Assembly (NCBI GenBank): GCA_963796455.1
Contig: CAWCLO010000004.1
Location: forward strand, 1-64,000
Source: Candidatus Sulfomarinibacteraceae bacterium
GTDB taxonomy: Bacteria; Acidobacteriota; Thermoanaerobaculia; Thermoanaerobaculales; Sulfomarinibacteraceae
DNA length: 64,000 nucleotides
Direction of reading: 5' to 3'
Part shown: one piece after another, positions 36,891 through 48,648 of the stretch
Position numbering within the stretch: the first letter of the stretch is position 1
Layout of the letters: every line of letters begins with the position of its first letter
The notes under the pieces: model-generated
Database searches by the model: none
What the model was told of the DNA's origin: nothing
Seen by the model: only the letters and a program-made list of their open reading frames with translations
Position numbers and translations under genes: made by a program

Positions 36891-37062
36891 AATCCCGACT
36901 TCGCTCTGCGGGTCGTCGCCGTGGCAGGTTCGCCCAATTTCGCCCGCAGATCACGCAGACGAGAAATCGCTATCGCTATCGATGTGACGACGATCCGCGG
37001 CTCGAGTCGGCCCCTTTGGATCGCTCGGGTAGGTTCGTCGCCCTCGACTCTTCCCGTCCTTT

Positions 37063-37108
37063 AGATCCTTCGACTACGGCTATGCCTCCGCTCAGGATGA
37101 CATCGGGA
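37063..37108. repeat. Half copy of the GTCATCCTGAGC element
   Basis: AGATCCTTCGACT...CTCCGCTCAGGATGACATCGGGA. Confidence 0.75.
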
Positions 37109-37202
37109 AGGGCTCGTGCTGAATTGGGATGGCTTCGTAGCGACGGTAGCGGGGTTGTCGTGAGAAGGGGGCCGCGAGCGCCGGAGGCGCGACAGAATCT
37201 AA

Positions 37203-37324
37203 AGCCCATAGCCCCATAGCCCCATAGCCCATAGCCCCATAGCCCATAGCCCATAGCCCATAGCCCCATAGCCCATAGCCCATAGCCCATAGCCCATAGC
37301 CCTATAGCCTAGAGCCTAGAGCCC
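37203..37324. repeat. Tandem AGCCC(C)AT array, about 16 units
   Basis: Directly visible; degenerate end overlaps the stop codon at 37316-37318. Confidence 0.92.
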
Positions 37325-41693: not shown

Positions 41694-41847
41694 GTGGCTC
41701 TCCTTGGAGTTGTTTGTGGTTTGCATCAACGGCCGATACAACGCCGGGGTGCGACGGGTATTCTACACCCACTTGTGACGGGGGCGGAACCAGTATCCGG
41801 CATCACTCGTGTCTACCAGAGGGGCAGCAGCGACAGAGAACAGCGAT

Positions 41848-41903
41848 CAGCGGCAGCGGTCAGGAGTACAGGCGACGAAGTGGCAACCTCCTGGTCGTTC
41901 AAC
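41848..41903 (+). repeat. Left arm of a 56-bp inverted repeat flanking the four-helix-bundle gene
   Basis: 53/56 match to the reverse complement of 42706-42761. Confidence 0.92.
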
Positions 41904-41911
41904 GAAAGGAA

Positions 41912-41978
41912 CGGCCGTTGTGGTGTAGGCGTCTCGCCTGCACACCGTGCGGCCGAGACGGCCGCACCACAAAGGCCG
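41912..41978. repeat. REP-like palindrome
   Basis: TTGTGGTG..CGTCTCG..TGCAC / GTGCG..CGAGACG..CACCACAA hairpin. Confidence 0.75.
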
Positions 41979-41997
41979 GAGCCCCGAAGAAGTGAGT

Positions 41998-42211
41998 GCT
42001 GTTCGCTGTCCCGGCCGTTGATCGCCGACGCCGACGACTGAACGCTGACGCTGACTACTGTCCACTGTCCCTGCTTGCCGTCCCTGGCGCTGTTTCTGAA
42101 ATCTGTCCAAGACAGAGTCTCGGCTGGCGTTCAGGGACGGCGACAGCGATCAGCGTCAGGGACAGGGAACAGCAATCAGTGTTCAGCGTCAGCGAACAGA
42201 AGTCAGCGTCA
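41998..42211. repeat. Two opposed degenerate hexamer arrays (CGCTG-type, then CAGCG-type)
   Basis: cgctga/ctgtcc units 41998-42092; cagcga/cagcgt/caggga units 42131-42211, separated by TGTCCAAGACAGAGTCTCGG. Confidence 0.75.
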
Positions 42212-42237
42212 CGTTTGACTGGCATGGGGCCCTGAAA

Positions 42238-42591
42238 TCAAGACTTCGGGTTGAGCAATCTCCAAGTCATTGCACGCACCTGATCAAAGGCCTTCATCGC
42301 TTCACTGGCTCTGTTCGGGCTGATCGCCCCGGCGTGAGCGAGAAGCTGCAAGTGGCTGTCGACCTCTTTGGCCGAGGCGTAGGCGATCCTCCAGTGGTTC
42401 GACCGGTCTCTACCAAACCGGCCGTGCCCTTCTGCCAGGTTCGCAGGGACCGAACTTGCCGACCGGATCACCTGATCGGCTATCGACTTCAGAGGAGCTG
42501 GAACCCTCATCACGAGCTTGATCGCGATTCCTGCGGCTTCGAGTGCTTTCGAGTGGGCAACGAGTTTGGTGTTCGTGGCGGCGTTGGACAT
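42238..42591 (-). CDS. Four-helix-bundle protein (23S rRNA IVS protein-like family)
   Basis: 117 aa; DQVIRSASSVPANLAEG.GR and IAYASAKEV signature; GGAGG SD at 42601-42597. Confidence 0.9.
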   Translation of the reverse strand: MSNAATNTKLVAHSKALEAAGIAIKLVMRVPAPLKSIADQVIRSASSVPANLAEGHGRFGRDRSNHWRIAYASAKEVDSHLQLLAHAGAISPNRASEAMKAFDQVRAMTWRLLNPKS

Positions 42592-42727
42592 GGTCACCTC
42601 CGGGTCGTTCATGCCCATACCCACAAGCCGGTGTGGTGGCCGATGTCAAGGATGCCCTGCACCCTGCCTGTCCTTGACATCGGCCGCCCACCGGCTACCT
42701 CTTCTGTTGAACGACCCGGTGGTGGCC
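42592..42727 (-). promoter_or_regulatory. Long 5' leader hairpin occluding the SD of the four-helix-bundle gene
   Basis: Nested stems 42592-42611/42708-42727 (18/20), 42626-42633/42689-42696 (8/8), 42638-42652/42671-42685 (15/15). Confidence 0.65.
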
Positions 42728-42840
42728 ACTTCGTCGCCTGTACTCCTGACCGCTGCCGCTGCTCTCTGGCGCTGAACACTGACCGCTGTCCCTGTTCGCT
42801 GTTGCCTGTCGCTGACGCTGGACACTGTCGCTGCCGCTGC
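42706..42840 (-). repeat. Right arm of the 56-bp inverted repeat plus CGCTG-type hexamer array
   Basis: 42706-42761 is the reverse complement of 41848-41903; continues as cgctgt/cgctga/cgctgc units. Confidence 0.9.
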
Positions 42841-43003
42841 AATTCGGGATCGGGAACGGGTACGTGCCAACCGCGAACCGGATATGCCAAAAACCAACCC
42901 GTAAACCACGTGTTGTCAGGTGGGTAACTTCAGGTGACGATCTGTTTTGGACAGCAGTGATCCTGCATCTTGAATCTTGTGGGCGGGCTAAGCTGGTCAT
43001 ATC

Positions 43004-43516
43004 ATGGCATCCGATCCAGCGTGCACGAGGCCGCCGCCCCGCTTCCTCTGCGATGCCATGCTGGGTTCCCTGGCTCGGTGGTTGCGTTTGTTCGGCTTCG
43101 ACTGCGACTATCCGGCGCCCGGGATCGAGGATCGGGTGCTCGCCGAGCGCGCGCGGGCCGAGGGACGATGGCTGTTGACCCGCGATCGGGAACTGGCGGC
43201 GGTCGGACCACGATCCATGTTGATTCGGCAATCGGATCTCGACGACCAATTGGTCGAGGTTTTCACCCGGCTCGCCTGCCTGCCTACGGCGACGCTCGAG
43301 GCGGCGCGGTGCGCGGAATGCAACGGGGTGCTCGAGGAGGCAGCGCCACGCGACGTGAGCGATTCGGCGCCTCCCCACGTCCTTCGGACAACATCGAGAT
43401 TCAGCCTTTGCTCTGGTTGTGGCAGGGTGTATTGGCCCGGCAGTCACGGCGAGAGAATCGTTCGGCGGATGGCAGCGGTGGTGGGGCGGGCGAAAATCAT
43501 GTTATCCAAGAAATGA
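43004..43516 (+). CDS. Mut7-C RNase domain protein (PIN-like + zinc ribbon)
   Basis: RFLCDAMLGSLARWLRLFGFD, LLTRDREL, RCAECNG, CSGCGRVYWPGSH. Confidence 0.9.
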   Translation: MASDPACTRPPPRFLCDAMLGSLARWLRLFGFDCDYPAPGIEDRVLAERARAEGRWLLTRDRELAAVGPRSMLIRQSDLDDQLVEVFTRLACLPTATLEAARCAECNGVLEEAAPRDVSDSAPPHVLRTTSRFSLCSGCGRVYWPGSHGERIVRRMAAVVGRAKIMLSKK

Positions 43517-43585: not shown

Positions 43586-44296
43586 TTAATTTTCAGGTAC
43601 AAAGCCGAGTCGAACCAGGGCCCGCCGGGCCGCCTGCTGCTGCGCCTCTCGCTTGCTGACGCCTTCGCCGCGGGCAACTTCGTCACCATCCCACTCGACC
43701 ACGTAGACCCACAGACGTTGGTGGTCGGGGCCTGATGCACCGGCCTGCCGGTACCTCGGTAAGGGCAGATTGCGCGCTTGCGCAGCCTCCTGGAGCGAAG
43801 ACTTCGGATCGGCCAGAGCGAGGGTCCTGTCATCGAGATTGTTGAGATCTTCGGCAAACTGATGTTCGATAAAGGCGAATGCCGCCTCCCAACCACCGTC
43901 GAGAGCGATCGCTCCAATGATGGCTTCGAACAGATCTTCGAGCAAAGCGGAGCGTTCCCGTCCTCGACCCAGTTCTTCGCTCGGTCCGAGCTCGACCCAG
44001 CCGTCGAGACCGAGCAGGGCGGCCCTCTCGGCCAGTCTTTCCGATCGCACGAGGTGGACCCGCTTCCGGGTCAAGAGGCCCTGGTCATCATTTGGAAAGA
44101 TCTCGAAAAGCAGTCGCGCGACGGCGTGCCCGAGGACCGCGTCGCCGAGGAACTCGAGGCGCTGATAGGACCCCGCTGTGTACGCGGTGGCCGCTGAACC
44201 GTGGCGCAGCGCGCGCCGGAGAAGCTCGGGGTCGGAAAAACTGTGACCCAACAAGGCTTCGAGATCTGTGACAGCGTCGTCTCTGAGTCCGGTCAT
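43586..44296 (-). CDS. rnc: Ribonuclease III
   Basis: QRLEFLGDAVL, DLFEAIIGAI.LD.G, dsRBD DPKSSLQE...GPDH...G.SKREAQQ.AA. Confidence 0.95.
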   Translation of the reverse strand: MTGLRDDAVTDLEALLGHSFSDPELLRRALRHGSAATAYTAGSYQRLEFLGDAVLGHAVARLLFEIFPNDDQGLLTRKRVHLVRSERLAERAALLGLDGWVELGPSEELGRGRERSALLEDLFEAIIGAIALDGGWEAAFAFIEHQFAEDLNNLDDRTLALADPKSSLQEAAQARNLPLPRYRQAGASGPDHQRLWVYVVEWDGDEVARGEGVSKREAQQQAARRALVRLGFVPEN

Positions 44297-44377
44297 GGGT
44301 GCATTGTACCCGCGGTTGCAGGCCGCCGAGAGCATTTCCGGAGGGATGATCGCGGCAGAGGAAGGTACGATGTCGTG

Positions 44378-46204
44378 GTGACGTCACATCATCCATTGCT
44401 CGAGCGCGCGCATGAAGCGCCGGAAAAGCCGGGGGTCTATCGATTCCAGGACAAGAACGGCAAGGACATCTACGTCGGCAAGGCGCTCAATCTGCGGCGA
44501 CGGGTGCTTTCTTATTTCGGCAAGCACGACCTCCCGGAGCGAACCCTCACCATGATCGGCAAGGCGCGTGGCCTCGACTTCACGGTCACCGCCACCGAGG
44601 CCGAGGCCTTCATTCTCGAAAACAATCTGATCAAACGCCTCCGTCCCCGCTACAACATCAATTTGCGGGACGACAAGACCTATCCCTACCTCAAGGTCAC
44701 TACCGGAGAGGTCTGGCCGCGGGTCGAGCTCACTCGAAGGGTTCGCGACGACGGCCACGCCTACTTCGGGCCTTTCATGGGCCAACACATGGCTCGCAAG
44801 CTGATGGATCTCGCGCGGACCAACTTCCAGGTCCGGACGTGCCGGATAGAGATCGACGGCAAGCTGCCGCGCCCGTGTCTCTACTACCACATGCGCGCCT
44901 GCCTCGGGCCCTGCGTCGATGGTCTGACGACCCCCGAGGCCTACGCCGAATCCGTCGATGAATTGCGCCTTTTTCTCGAGGGGCGTCATCGCCAGTTGTT
45001 GCCGCGTTTGGAAAAGAACATGTGGGTCGCGTCGGAGCGCGAGGATTTTGAACTCGCAGCGCGCTATCGGGACCTCTTGAAGGTGGTCGGTCGGCTCGGT
45101 GAACGCCAGGATGTGGAACGTCCGGGTCGCGGTGACACCGATGCGGTGGCGATCTGGACCGATGGTGAGCACGCCTCAGTGTGCGTACTGCCGTTTCGAG
45201 CCGGGCGTCTGGTGGAAAAACGGGAATTCCACTTCGAAGGAATCGGCGAGGTTTCAGCCTCCGATCTGTTGACGACCTTTCTCGCGCAATACTACGAAGC
45301 CAACCCGTCGGTTCCCGGCCGGGTGGATACGGCGCAGGATCTCGAGTCTGAGGACAAGGTACTTCTGGGCGCCTATCTCCGTCACATCCGCGGCCTCAAG
45401 ATCGATCTCACGAACCCGCGTCGAGGTCCGAGGGTTCGCCGTACCCAGTTGGCCCTGGACAATGCCCGGGCAGCCTTCGATCTCCGATTCCGCGCTCCAC
45501 GTTCGCAAGCGCAGCACCTTGCGCGACGGCTCGGCGAGGCCCTCGGCCTGCCGGGGCCGGTGCGGCATATCGAGTGCTTTGACATCTCACATTCTGGGGG
45601 CAAGGAGACGACGGCCTCCTGCGTGGTCTGGCAGGACGGTCGCATGAACAAGAAGCAATACCGGAGTTTTCACATCCGTTCGGTCGAAGGGGTGGACGAT
45701 TTTGGGTCGATTGCGGAAGCTGTCGGCCGCCGTTATCGCCGACTCATCGACGAGAATCGTGCGATGCCGGATCTCGTGTTGATCGATGGCGGGGTCGGCC
45801 AGCTCAACGCGGCGATGGCGGCCCTCGATTCTCTGGAACTCGATCTACCTCTGGCGGCTCTGGCCAAACGTGAAGAAGAAGTCTGGTTGCCGACGGCCTC
45901 CGAGCCTCTACGGCTCGATCCATCTGATCCGGCCCACCTGGTTTTGCGGGAGACGCGTGACGAGGCCCATCGCTTCGCCATCAGCCGGCACCGCTCGCGG
46001 AGAAGCAAACGGACTCTGGCCTCACAGCTCCTGGCGGTCCCGGGTATCGGACCGGGCAGGGCAAAATCGCTGCTCACCCGTTTTGGATCGGTGCGTGCGG
46101 TGCAGCAGGCTTCCGTCGAAGAGCTGCAGCGAGCCTTGGGACCGAGACTGGGTCGACACCTCTTTCACCATCTGCATGCGGGGGAGCCGCCGGCCGAAGG
46201 CTGA
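44378..46204 (+). CDS. uvrC: Excinuclease ABC subunit C
   Basis: PGVY..IYVGKA.NLR.RV.SYF, PRYNI.LRDDK.YPY, ECFDISH, DLVLIDGG.GQL, RDEAHRFA, HhH PGIGP. Confidence 0.96.
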   Translation: MTSHHPLLERAHEAPEKPGVYRFQDKNGKDIYVGKALNLRRRVLSYFGKHDLPERTLTMIGKARGLDFTVTATEAEAFILENNLIKRLRPRYNINLRDDKTYPYLKVTTGEVWPRVELTRRVRDDGHAYFGPFMGQHMARKLMDLARTNFQVRTCRIEIDGKLPRPCLYYHMRACLGPCVDGLTTPEAYAESVDELRLFLEGRHRQLLPRLEKNMWVASEREDFELAARYRDLLKVVGRLGERQDVERPGRGDTDAVAIWTDGEHASVCVLPFRAGRLVEKREFHFEGIGEVSASDLLTTFLAQYYEANPSVPGRVDTAQDLESEDKVLLGAYLRHIRGLKIDLTNPRRGPRVRRTQLALDNARAAFDLRFRAPRSQAQHLARRLGEALGLPGPVRHIECFDISHSGGKETTASCVVWQDGRMNKKQYRSFHIRSVEGVDDFGSIAEAVGRRYRRLIDENRAMPDLVLIDGGVGQLNAAMAALDSLELDLPLAALAKREEEVWLPTASEPLRLDPSDPAHLVLRETRDEAHRFAISRHRSRRSKRTLASQLLAVPGIGPGRAKSLLTRFGSVRAVQQASVEELQRALGPRLGRHLFHHLHAGEPPAEG

Positions 46205-46205
46205 C

Positions 46206-46316
46206 GAGTTCTGAGTTCTGAATTCGGAATTCTGAGTTCTGCATTCGCTCTGCCGCCCGTTTCAATGCCGGATTCGTGACGAAAACTCCGAACTCCGAAT
46301 TCCGCACTCCGAATTC
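46206..46316. repeat. Inverted pair of heptamer arrays around a ~36-bp unique core
   Basis: Six GAGTTCT/GAATTCG units 46206-46247; AACTCCG-type units 46284-46316. Confidence 0.88.
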
Positions 46317-47015: not shown

Positions 47016-47486
47016 ATGGGTTATTTCAGACTGGCAAAGACTTTCGAGGTCGAATACGGACACCGGTTGAGCAAACATCCGGAGAAGTGCCGTTTTCCTC
47101 ATGGCCACAGCTTGCGCATCGAGGTGGTCGTGCGGGGACGCGAGTTGGACGACCACGACATGGTCTGTGACTACAAGGCGCTCAAGATGCTCGTGATCGA
47201 TATCGTTGATCGACTGGACCACGGGATGGCGCTCAACTCGAAGGACCCTGAACTCGAGAGCCTGAAGGGAATCGGTGAGCGGATCCTGCTCTTCGAAGAC
47301 ATGGACCCGACTTCCGAGGTCCTGGCGCGTTGGATATTCGAAGAGATGGCCGCGCGACTGGCGAATGCCCATGACGTCGAGGCTCCGTCCGGGGTGGCCT
47401 ACCTGATCCCGAACGATCTCGAACTGGAACGGGTTCGGGTATGGGAGACCTCAACTTCGTGGGGAGAATTCGTGGGGATTGAATGA
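47016..47486 (+). CDS. queD: 6-carboxytetrahydropterin synthase
   Basis: HRL....KC..PHGHS, DY, LDH, PTSEVLA, VWET; adjacent to queE. Confidence 0.9.
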   Translation: MGYFRLAKTFEVEYGHRLSKHPEKCRFPHGHSLRIEVVVRGRELDDHDMVCDYKALKMLVIDIVDRLDHGMALNSKDPELESLKGIGERILLFEDMDPTSEVLARWIFEEMAARLANAHDVEAPSGVAYLIPNDLELERVRVWETSTSWGEFVGIE

Positions 47487-47496
47487 AAGAGGGCAC

Positions 47497-47596
47497 ATTC
47501 GGATTTCCGATTTCGGATTTCGGAATTCCCATCGCACCTGCTGTGGAGAATTGGTTTGTCCCTGAACTCCGAACTCCGAAATCCGAACTCCGAATT
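47497..47596. repeat. Inverted pair of heptamer arrays around a ~35-bp unique core
   Basis: ATTTCGG-type units 47497-47528; AACTCCG-type units 47565-47596. Confidence 0.85.
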
Positions 47597-47604
47597 GATC
47601 GCTA

Positions 47605-48648
47605 GTGGATTATTCGCATGAAAATCCGTTGGTTGCACCTGCCGATGTGAAACATTGGCTCGAGGCGATCCCTGGACCGATCGCCATCACCGGTGGAACC
47701 GGTTTCGTCGGCTCCCATCTCGTGGATTGCCTGTGCGCGGCCGGTATCAGACCGAGGGTTCTCGTGCGCCGGCCGGATGATCCGCGGTGGATCGCTGATG
47801 CTCCGGTAGAGATGATCGAGGGGTCGCTGGAGGATATTGACGCCCTGGGTCGATTGGTCGATGGGGCCGGATCGGTTTTTCACATAGCGGGCGTGCTGCG
47901 GGCTGCCAGCGAAAAGGACTTTGACGAAGGCAACCGGCAGGGCACACAAAACCTCGTCCGCGCGGTCGGCCGAAACGCTGCCTCAGCGCGTCTGATCCAC
48001 GTCTCCTCGCTCGCCGCGGTAGGTCCGTCCCCGGAACCGGAGGGGGTCGGACCGGAAGCCGAAGCGGCGCCGGTGTCCTGGTATGGAAAATCGAAGTTGG
48101 CGGCAGAAGGGGAGATACGGGCCGGGGCGGGGGACGGTTGGTGGACGATCATCCGGCCGCCTGCGATCTATGGGCCTCGAGACAGCGACATCTTCGAGTT
48201 CTTTCGAATGGCCGACCGGGGTGTGGTCGCTTTTCCGGGCGGGGAGCGTTGGCTGACCGTGTCATATGTTGGCGATGTCGTGCGGGCGATTCTCGCCGCT
48301 GCTGCGGGCAACGCGGGTGCCGTCTTCCACATCGGGGAGCCGGAGCCGGTGCGACTCGACGATATGATTTCGATCCTGTCGGAAGCGGGTGGCGTGCGGT
48401 CGAAGGTGGTCAAATTGCCACCGTGGTTGGTGGCGGGGGCCGGGTCGATTGGCAGTCTCCTGCAACGTCTCGGTTGGCGCCGGTTGCCTCTGACGCAGGA
48501 CAAATGTCGCGATTTGCTGGCCTCCCACTGGACGGCACGCACGGCTGATTCCCTGCAGGCGCTCGGTATCGCTTCGCAAACGCTTTTTGCCCCGGGGTGC
48601 CGAGAAACCTGGCAGTGGTATCGCGAGCAGGGCTGGCTGGCACGCTGA
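47605..48648 (+). CDS. NAD(P)-dependent epimerase/dehydratase-type SDR; candidate ketosphingolipid reductase
   Basis: ITGGTGFVG, HVSSLAA, YGKSK, IRPPAIYGP; sphingolipid role inferred from neighbours only. Confidence 0.85.
   Translation: MDYSHENPLVAPADVKHWLEAIPGPIAITGGTGFVGSHLVDCLCAAGIRPRVLVRRPDDPRWIADAPVEMIEGSLEDIDALGRLVDGAGSVFHIAGVLRAASEKDFDEGNRQGTQNLVRAVGRNAASARLIHVSSLAAVGPSPEPEGVGPEAEAAPVSWYGKSKLAAEGEIRAGAGDGWWTIIRPPAIYGPRDSDIFEFFRMADRGVVAFPGGERWLTVSYVGDVVRAILAAAAGNAGAVFHIGEPEPVRLDDMISILSEAGGVRSKVVKLPPWLVAGAGSIGSLLQRLGWRRLPLTQDKCRDLLASHWTARTADSLQALGIASQTLFAPGCRETWQWYREQGWLAR

Follow-up and report, generated by a model that had tools for sequence, protein, structure and literature searches.

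The gene and its hairpin

The window, by which we mean the whole stretch of 64,000 nucleotides that was analysed, carries on its minus strand an element flanked by a Mut7-C gene and an aconitase gene, which are divergently oriented. It contains a gene whose product matches PF05635 with E = 1.6e-15 and PDB 2gsc with E = 3e-4. The spacer between the Mut7-C and aconitase genes is short and lacks the element in five of five relatives. No same-strand host gene that could drive transcription lies upstream of the ORF, and a consensus scan of 41700-43100 returned no sigma-70 promoter. The features, in the direction of the gene, are as follows.

42960-42968, minus strand: ATGCAGGAT, probable 9-bp target duplication (left copy); the target consists of heptamer repeats
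42942-42959, minus strand: left terminal inverted repeat, the same end as in IS4-family (DUF4372 plus DDE_Tnp_1) elements
42729-42941, minus strand: IS-end segment, then a variable 5′ hexamer-repeat tract
42708-42728, minus strand: anti-SD strand, forming helix 1 from the 5′ side; 58 of 59 copies have it
42626-42696, minus strand: helix 2 (8 bp) and helix 3 (15 bp), nested inside helix 1
42591-42612, minus strand: SD strand, the 3′ side of helix 1, with an ATG at 42612, the SD GGAGGTGA at 42601-42594 and the ATG at 42591
42591-42238, minus strand: main ORF, a 117-aa four-helix-bundle gene (PF05635 / TIGR02436, 23S-IVS-protein family)
42104-42237, minus strand: 3′ hexamer tract, then the right terminal repeat (42117-42104), which lacks its last 7 bases
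41795-41803, minus strand: right 9-mer ATGCCGGAT, 8/9 identical to the left one; composite duplication or heptamer-array unit
41760-41769, minus strand: GGTGTAGAAT, probably the aconitase -10 box; it lies downstream of the insert and is conserved in five of five relatives

The preliminary description had read three nested stems of 18/20, 8/8 and 15/15 pairs that end right at the ATG and take in the GGAGG SD, and this anatomy was confirmed. The hairpin is 138 nt long: helix 1 joins 42727-42708 with 42592-42611 through 18/20 Watson-Crick pairs, the mismatches being C.A at 42725/42594 and A.A at 42720/42599; helix 2 joins 42696-42689 with 42626-42633 (8/8 pairs, read by eye); and helix 3 joins 42685-42671 with 42638-42652 (15/15 pairs). 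Back-to-back TTGACA boxes lie inside helix 3, at 42649-42644 on the minus strand and at 42674-42679 on the plus strand. The leader has two in-frame ATGs: the main one at 42591 and a second, previously overlooked, which sits atop the outer helix at 42612. Folding of 42570-42780 gave -103.9 kcal/mol (z = -5.9), with none of 200 shuffles as stable, and no Rfam family matched at its gathering score within the window.

The predicted cost of opening the ribosome footprint has a median of 30 kcal/mol over the 59 full-length copies of the element in the genome, against 5.7-17.0 kcal/mol for nine putative host starts in the window. Deleting the anti-SD strand in silico brought the cost down to 12.4 kcal/mol, inside the host range; internal initiation or cleavage would therefore allow expression.

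Spurious ORFs with repeated peptides elsewhere in the window (about 36976-37290, 46074-46307 and 47399-47638) suggest that further intergenic spacers also hold heptamer arrays, of the kind that flanks cassette insertions. Two of five listed sequencing runs contain part of the stretch, both as contigs of relatives' copies.

A mobile cassette in dozens of copies

What the preliminary description missed is that the gene and its hairpin are multicopy: the genome holds 59 full-length copies at >80% identity, along with many fragments. Over these 59 copies (1,711 pairs) the ORF has a dN/dS of 0.14, and its pN/pS is about 0.1 for shared variants and 0.5 for single-copy variants, ratios by which it is under purifying selection.

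The copies have terminal inverted repeats and variable hexamer tracts on either side. Among 64 paired elements, 9-bp target duplications are exact in 20 and within one mismatch in 35, against shuffle maxima of 8 and 16, and none has a duplication of 7, 8, 10 or 11 bp; heptamer-array targets are frequent and inflate the 9-bp count, which also includes cases outside arrays. At the present locus, the 8/9 likeness of the flanking 9-mers is one that about 12% of shuffled flank pairs reach (7.5/64). A scan for the left end returned 118 stretches, of which 117 were examined. Four of them, in other taxa, are elements of 1.34-1.41 kb with the same ends, long ORFs and exact 9-bp duplications, and the two proteins tested from these were both DUF4372 plus DDE_Tnp_1 transposases. 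The cassette itself contains no transposase. A transposase of this type with the cassette's ends occurs in one of 25 genus genomes (one of 24 apart from the present one, G000), and seven queries together with a genome search found no cognate transposase in the 90.5% complete assembly of G000. The lone DDE_Tnp_1 match of the genome was rejected for this role, its ends being unrelated to those of the cassette; this match, of 353 aa, lies in an element (L031:1190-2745) that has a direct repeat of some 30 bp on either side. By its ends and contents, then, the cassette is a transposase-less, non-autonomous mobile element with IS4-family ends, of the MIC/MITE type. The idea of a retro-element, raised by 5′-truncated copies, was set aside in view of the terminal repeats and the uniform 9-bp duplication.

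Of 24 other genus genomes, 17 have the four-helix protein, as do 3 of 16 genomes of another family, and the same ends together with 87-89% identical proteins occur at loci of Ca. Sulfomarinibacteraceae, Acidobacteriota. Mobile insertion cassettes and passenger-carrying IS231 elements are described within the IS4 family (PMC2266710), and the cassette resembles them in having IS4-family ends around a non-transposase cargo. Its CA ends and 9-bp duplication fit the IS4Sa row of the table in that source (CA ends, 8-10 bp), a putative assignment based on ends and duplication length. Unlike the MIC and IS231 elements as that account presents them, the cassette reaches dozens of copies per genome, carries an IVS-protein cargo under purifying selection, and has hexamer tracts and REP-bearing ORF-less derivatives. 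No published description of the cassette was found in a search of titles and abstract openings.

Convergent intergenic gaps hold more full copies than their share (26 of 59 copies, against 21% of gaps; crude gene calls), and the orientation of full copies against host transcription (17 versus 7, p = 0.064, on the same crude calls) is not significant. One recurring subfamily of the cassette is deleted to codon 57. In other species, the gene and its hairpin occur within different terminal sequences (L035, L042, L046 and L060 versus L036, L040, L055, L056, L058 and L061), a sign that transposon ends of different kinds may have captured them repeatedly. Several copies at L180, L183 and L184 (family f2; G040, G036) have a second, inverted, partial four-helix-bundle ORF downstream, which shows no pairing with the leader. 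The cassette's IS4 ends also surround unrelated palindromic cargo without the four-helix gene at G000:C5:1335-2018 and C4:114700-115250, and relatives carry IS4 ends around other ORF-less cargoes.

A possible second partner for the anti-SD strand

Downstream of the gene lies a sister element, which we call a mini, with these parts.

41804-42103, plus strand: ORF-less sister (mini) element, inverted, in tail-to-tail fusion with the cassette
41841-41908, plus strand: "distal arm", made up of the mini's anti-SD arm and 5′ tract; its minus-strand reading is an SD mimic (41901-41881)
41918-41972, no strand assigned: REP doublet in place of the mini's inner hairpin and ORF

The mini consists of a degenerate end (41804-41817), the 5′ tract, the anti-SD arm, the REP doublet, a tail of the ORF (41983-41998) and the 3′ tract. 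The preliminary description held that the anti-SD strand has a second partner downstream that carries a mimic of the SD region, and both points were borne out: 41841-41908 and 42701-42768 form an inverted repeat of 68 nt with 90% complementarity (52/56 ungapped), and the mimic TGAACGACCAGGAGG lies at 41901-41887. By sequence, this mimic is nothing but the anti-SD arm of the mini itself, read as its reverse complement. When the region is folded in one piece, the distal arm is predicted to capture the anti-SD strand with P ~1, in a duplex of -120.6 kcal/mol, and the predicted cost of opening the ribosome footprint falls from 22.8 kcal/mol without the arm to 13.2 kcal/mol with it. At this locus, the two folds are thus predicted to be mutually exclusive, as had been proposed.

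The further proposal was that these folds form an evolved cis switch, off in the nascent RNA and turned on by 5′-3′ distal pairing. The strength of the predicted duplex speaks for it, as do the 8/9-alike 9-mers that border the composite. The comparison between copies has largely refuted it, to the point that we find it barely tenable. When partners were scored over about 1.6 kb downstream, the score was 99 here, 66 in two convergent copies, each of which sees the other's leader, and at most 39 in the other 56 copies, three of which have merely a short motif match 0.8-1.0 kb away. A partner of arm length is thus found in 1 of 59 copies, and none was found in relatives (best score 33 among 25 scored of 28 loci; 36 among 32 scored of 35 further loci, which partly overlap the first 28). 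The arm belongs to a separate element with 73 copies in the genome, all of which keep the anti-SD arm and not the SD strand. Three of these 73 minis are no more than 2.5 kb from the start of a full copy. Only the present one is inverted downstream, and chance would supply 0.2-1.8 such neighbours. Co-adaptation of the two arms was rejected, as the pair at this locus ranks fifth among the 73 minis and eighth among 58 full copies. A sibling at C7:251065, identical at 854 of 870 bases and with intact ends, has no distal arm; the insertion is absent from all five relatives; and the lack of a same-strand upstream host gene also counts against a switch. The distal arm is most likely an accident of this copy and not an evolved on/off switch, because it is a piece of a sister element adjoining one copy only. 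Of the riboregulator-like leader proposed earlier, the conserved hairpin, predicted to bury the SD, is supported and the long-range switch is not.

The right ends of the cassette and of the mini are both truncated at their junction, as would be left by two insertions and a later deletion at the centre of the palindrome, or else by a single composite insertion.

The switch had also been likened to long-range-pairing type I toxin mRNAs. In aapA3 and hok, conserved 5′-3′ pairing keeps the mRNA off until 3′ trimming turns it on, according to the account of these mRNAs in PMC6733600. The locus shares with them a local SD-sequestering hairpin and a possible 5′-3′ pairing that excludes it, but the logic is reversed: the 5′-3′ pairing here is predicted to free the SD and not to occlude it, and it is unique to one copy where theirs is conserved. 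The product, a 117-aa helix bundle of PF05635, also differs from theirs.

We suggest that the long-range switch be dropped as a design and taken as a by-product of clustered repeats, and as a warning for readings based on a single locus. With a sibling in the same genome that is 98% identical and lacks the decoy arm, the locus offers a natural test construct. The refutation of the distal switch and the identity of the decoy are new here, along with the lead of an antisense half-promoter considered below.

The IS4-ended cassette apparently captured a REP doublet and multiplied with it to 73 copies. REPs similar to those of the mini flank Y1-transposase genes at two of six loci of the genome (L210, L211). 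In one run (X2), REP units are arrayed in tandem with variable spacers; a CRISPR reading of its variable joints was set aside, the unit being the REP doublet.

Conservation and probable role of the hairpin

Across copies and relatives, the pairing over the SD and the start is kept. The hairpin is intact in 58 of the 59 full copies, an anti-SD arm lies upstream of 70 of 72 SD strands, the main start is ATG or GTG in 59/59 copies, the upstream ATG is present in 58/59 and GGAGGTGA in 55/59. In an alignment of 21 leaders, 96.9% of cells are paired and 13 of 45 pairs show two-sided changes, covariation that exceeds all 500 shuffles and all slid controls, a count that is not a probability as the sequences are related. 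These leaders come from 30 loci, from which three cut by contig ends, two with an alternative inner stem, three distant ones and one G000 sibling were excluded. Pairing that is predicted to bury the SD and start is conserved in homologous leaders. The two-sided changes are concentrated in helix 3 (9/15 pairs) and few in helix 1 (3/21), whose sequence is nearly invariant in the alignment. Helix 1 is also retained in 4 of 13 leaders of another genome (G006) despite a wholly replaced inner stem. In the other family, the start codon is covered by pairing with a strand of different sequence, within 170 nt in 12 of 13 complete leaders and further up in the thirteenth, and the only start codon is the counterpart of the upstream ATG at 42612. 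The lock may leak, because the purine-rich stretch ahead of this upstream ATG is unpaired in relatives.

Taken together, we think it probable that the hairpin is a fixed part of the transposase-less, IS4-ended cassette and acts as a constitutive translation lock, and that the second partner of its anti-SD strand is an inverted sister adjoining by chance. According to the folding predictions, any transcript that includes 42708-42728 would fold with the SD and start buried, and one that starts 3′ of the anti-SD strand, or is cut in the stem, would present an accessible start. By analogy with fold-back leaders of the IS200 and IS10 kind, the lock would keep dozens of copies quiet under host read-through, and RNA that is processed or starts internally would be the rare source of the protein. 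A transcript that extends to 41841 is predicted to unlock the gene partly, as a side effect confined to this locus.

Fold-back inhibition is known from IS10 and IS50. In IS200, the 5′ UTR of tnpA contains an SD-sequestering stem-loop (described in PMC4513863), and the likeness to the present element, as far as that description extends, is that a mobile element hides a near-perfect SD in a hairpin by means of an upstream anti-SD strand. Unlike in IS200 and IS10/IS50, the locked gene of the cassette is a four-helix-bundle passenger and not a transposase, and the hairpin spans 138 nt in three nested helices. A conserved helix over the SD and start, as in fold-back leaders, is present in the copies, but the excess of G.U over A.C appositions expected on the RNA if selection acted on the sense fold is absent, both in the copies of the genome and in the 21-leader alignment: distinct alleles number 7 G.U to 10 A.C in the former and 5 to 10 in the latter, small counts that include probably neutral private changes. 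Most likely, by this analogy, the element works like an IS fold-back leader on a MIC-type IS4 cassette with an IVS-protein cargo.

The missing G.U excess bears on a different reading, in which the palindrome acts mainly as a DNA or opposite-strand structure (protein-binding, recombination), its perfection perhaps kept by template-switch correction, and the burial of the SD is a by-product. A role at the DNA level or on the opposite strand is possible because the sense RNA is not favoured by the mismatches and, in 51/59 copies, it is the antisense strand that has the better fold; a C.A apposition that pairs only on the opposite strand is present in 51/58. The compensatory changes in helix 3 come as multi-base blocks, many deletion derivatives have their breakpoints within the stem, and the sequence TTGACA-N16-18-TA is retained solely on the opposite strand, all of which this reading would accommodate. 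We nonetheless regard it as unlikely, as helix 1 always covers the initiation region, even where its sequence or the inner stem has been replaced, and arm-less copies are rare (2/72, one of them with a 59-codon ORF).

The near invariance of helix 1 could also point to processing of the kind seen in rRNA intervening sequences, in which the helix would be an RNase III substrate whose cleavage frees the SD or destroys the RNA. The 23S rRNA intervening sequence of Coxiella burnetii encodes S23p, with restricted translation, and has a terminal stem that RNase III cleaves (as reported in PMC4990558). This intervening sequence shares with the cassette the PF05635 protein family, long helices around the ORF and restricted translation, predicted in the case of the cassette. 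However, the Coxiella cut, in that report, removes the SD and does not free it. The cassette differs further from the system described there in lying outside an rRNA gene, between the Mut7-C and aconitase genes, in having transposon ends, in a conserved and not decaying ORF, and in an SD that is strong and locally paired and not cut away. Membership among rRNA intervening sequences thus holds for the protein family and fails on the location. An RNase III gene does lie near the element (43586-44335), but a functional link to it was rejected: its proximity carries no information, because the same, ancestral gene order is found in five of five relatives without the element. We consider such processing quite improbable as the function of the hairpin.

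The conserved opposite-strand motif, an antisense half-promoter by its sequence, invites a further reading. Of 99 leaders, 91 carry TTGACA-N16-18-TA on the antisense strand and not one carries it on the sense strand; the TA lies 16-18 nt past the -35-like box in 54/59, 19/20, 7/8 and 11/12 leaders with differing stem sequences. A weak promoter in the hairpin (at this locus TTGACA at 42674 and TA at 42696 on the plus strand) could give rise to a transcript beginning at the anti-SD strand, which would take the place of the SD strand in the helix and make the cassette its own activator; antisense read-through of minis could act likewise in trans. The retention of the anti-SD arm, and not of the SD strand, in the 73 minis agrees with such a trigger. 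Against it, the sixth base of the antisense -10 box is T in only 2 of the 91 leaders, the consensus scan gave no promoter, and minis in co-directional gaps show no orientation bias (19 versus 17; crude gene calls). The chance that the hairpin works in this way seems to us slim indeed. The idea can be put more broadly as a natural toehold-type riboregulator, in which the copies lock themselves and an antisense RNA that pairs with the anti-SD strand switches an Avd-like protein on; the trigger RNA would come from the antisense TTGACA-N16-18-TA site or from read-through of any of the 73 minis, and the tail-to-tail fusion at this locus would be its cis version. This we rate as very improbable.

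Under the constitutive lock that we favour, the remaining puzzle is an uncharacterised IVS-protein or Avd-like gene that is kept at a dN/dS of 0.14 in dozens of mobile copies behind a start that is predicted to be locked. Avd is the pentameric partner of a reverse transcriptase, in the description given by PMC6182149. Identifying the route by which the start is unlocked would bear on the role of the protein and on the spread of rRNA intervening sequences.

Two copies, at G000:C3:166980 (-) and C1:701477 (-), have lost the anti-SD arm through the same short-homology deletion, and one of them retains the full 117-codon ORF, representing a natural unlocked allele.
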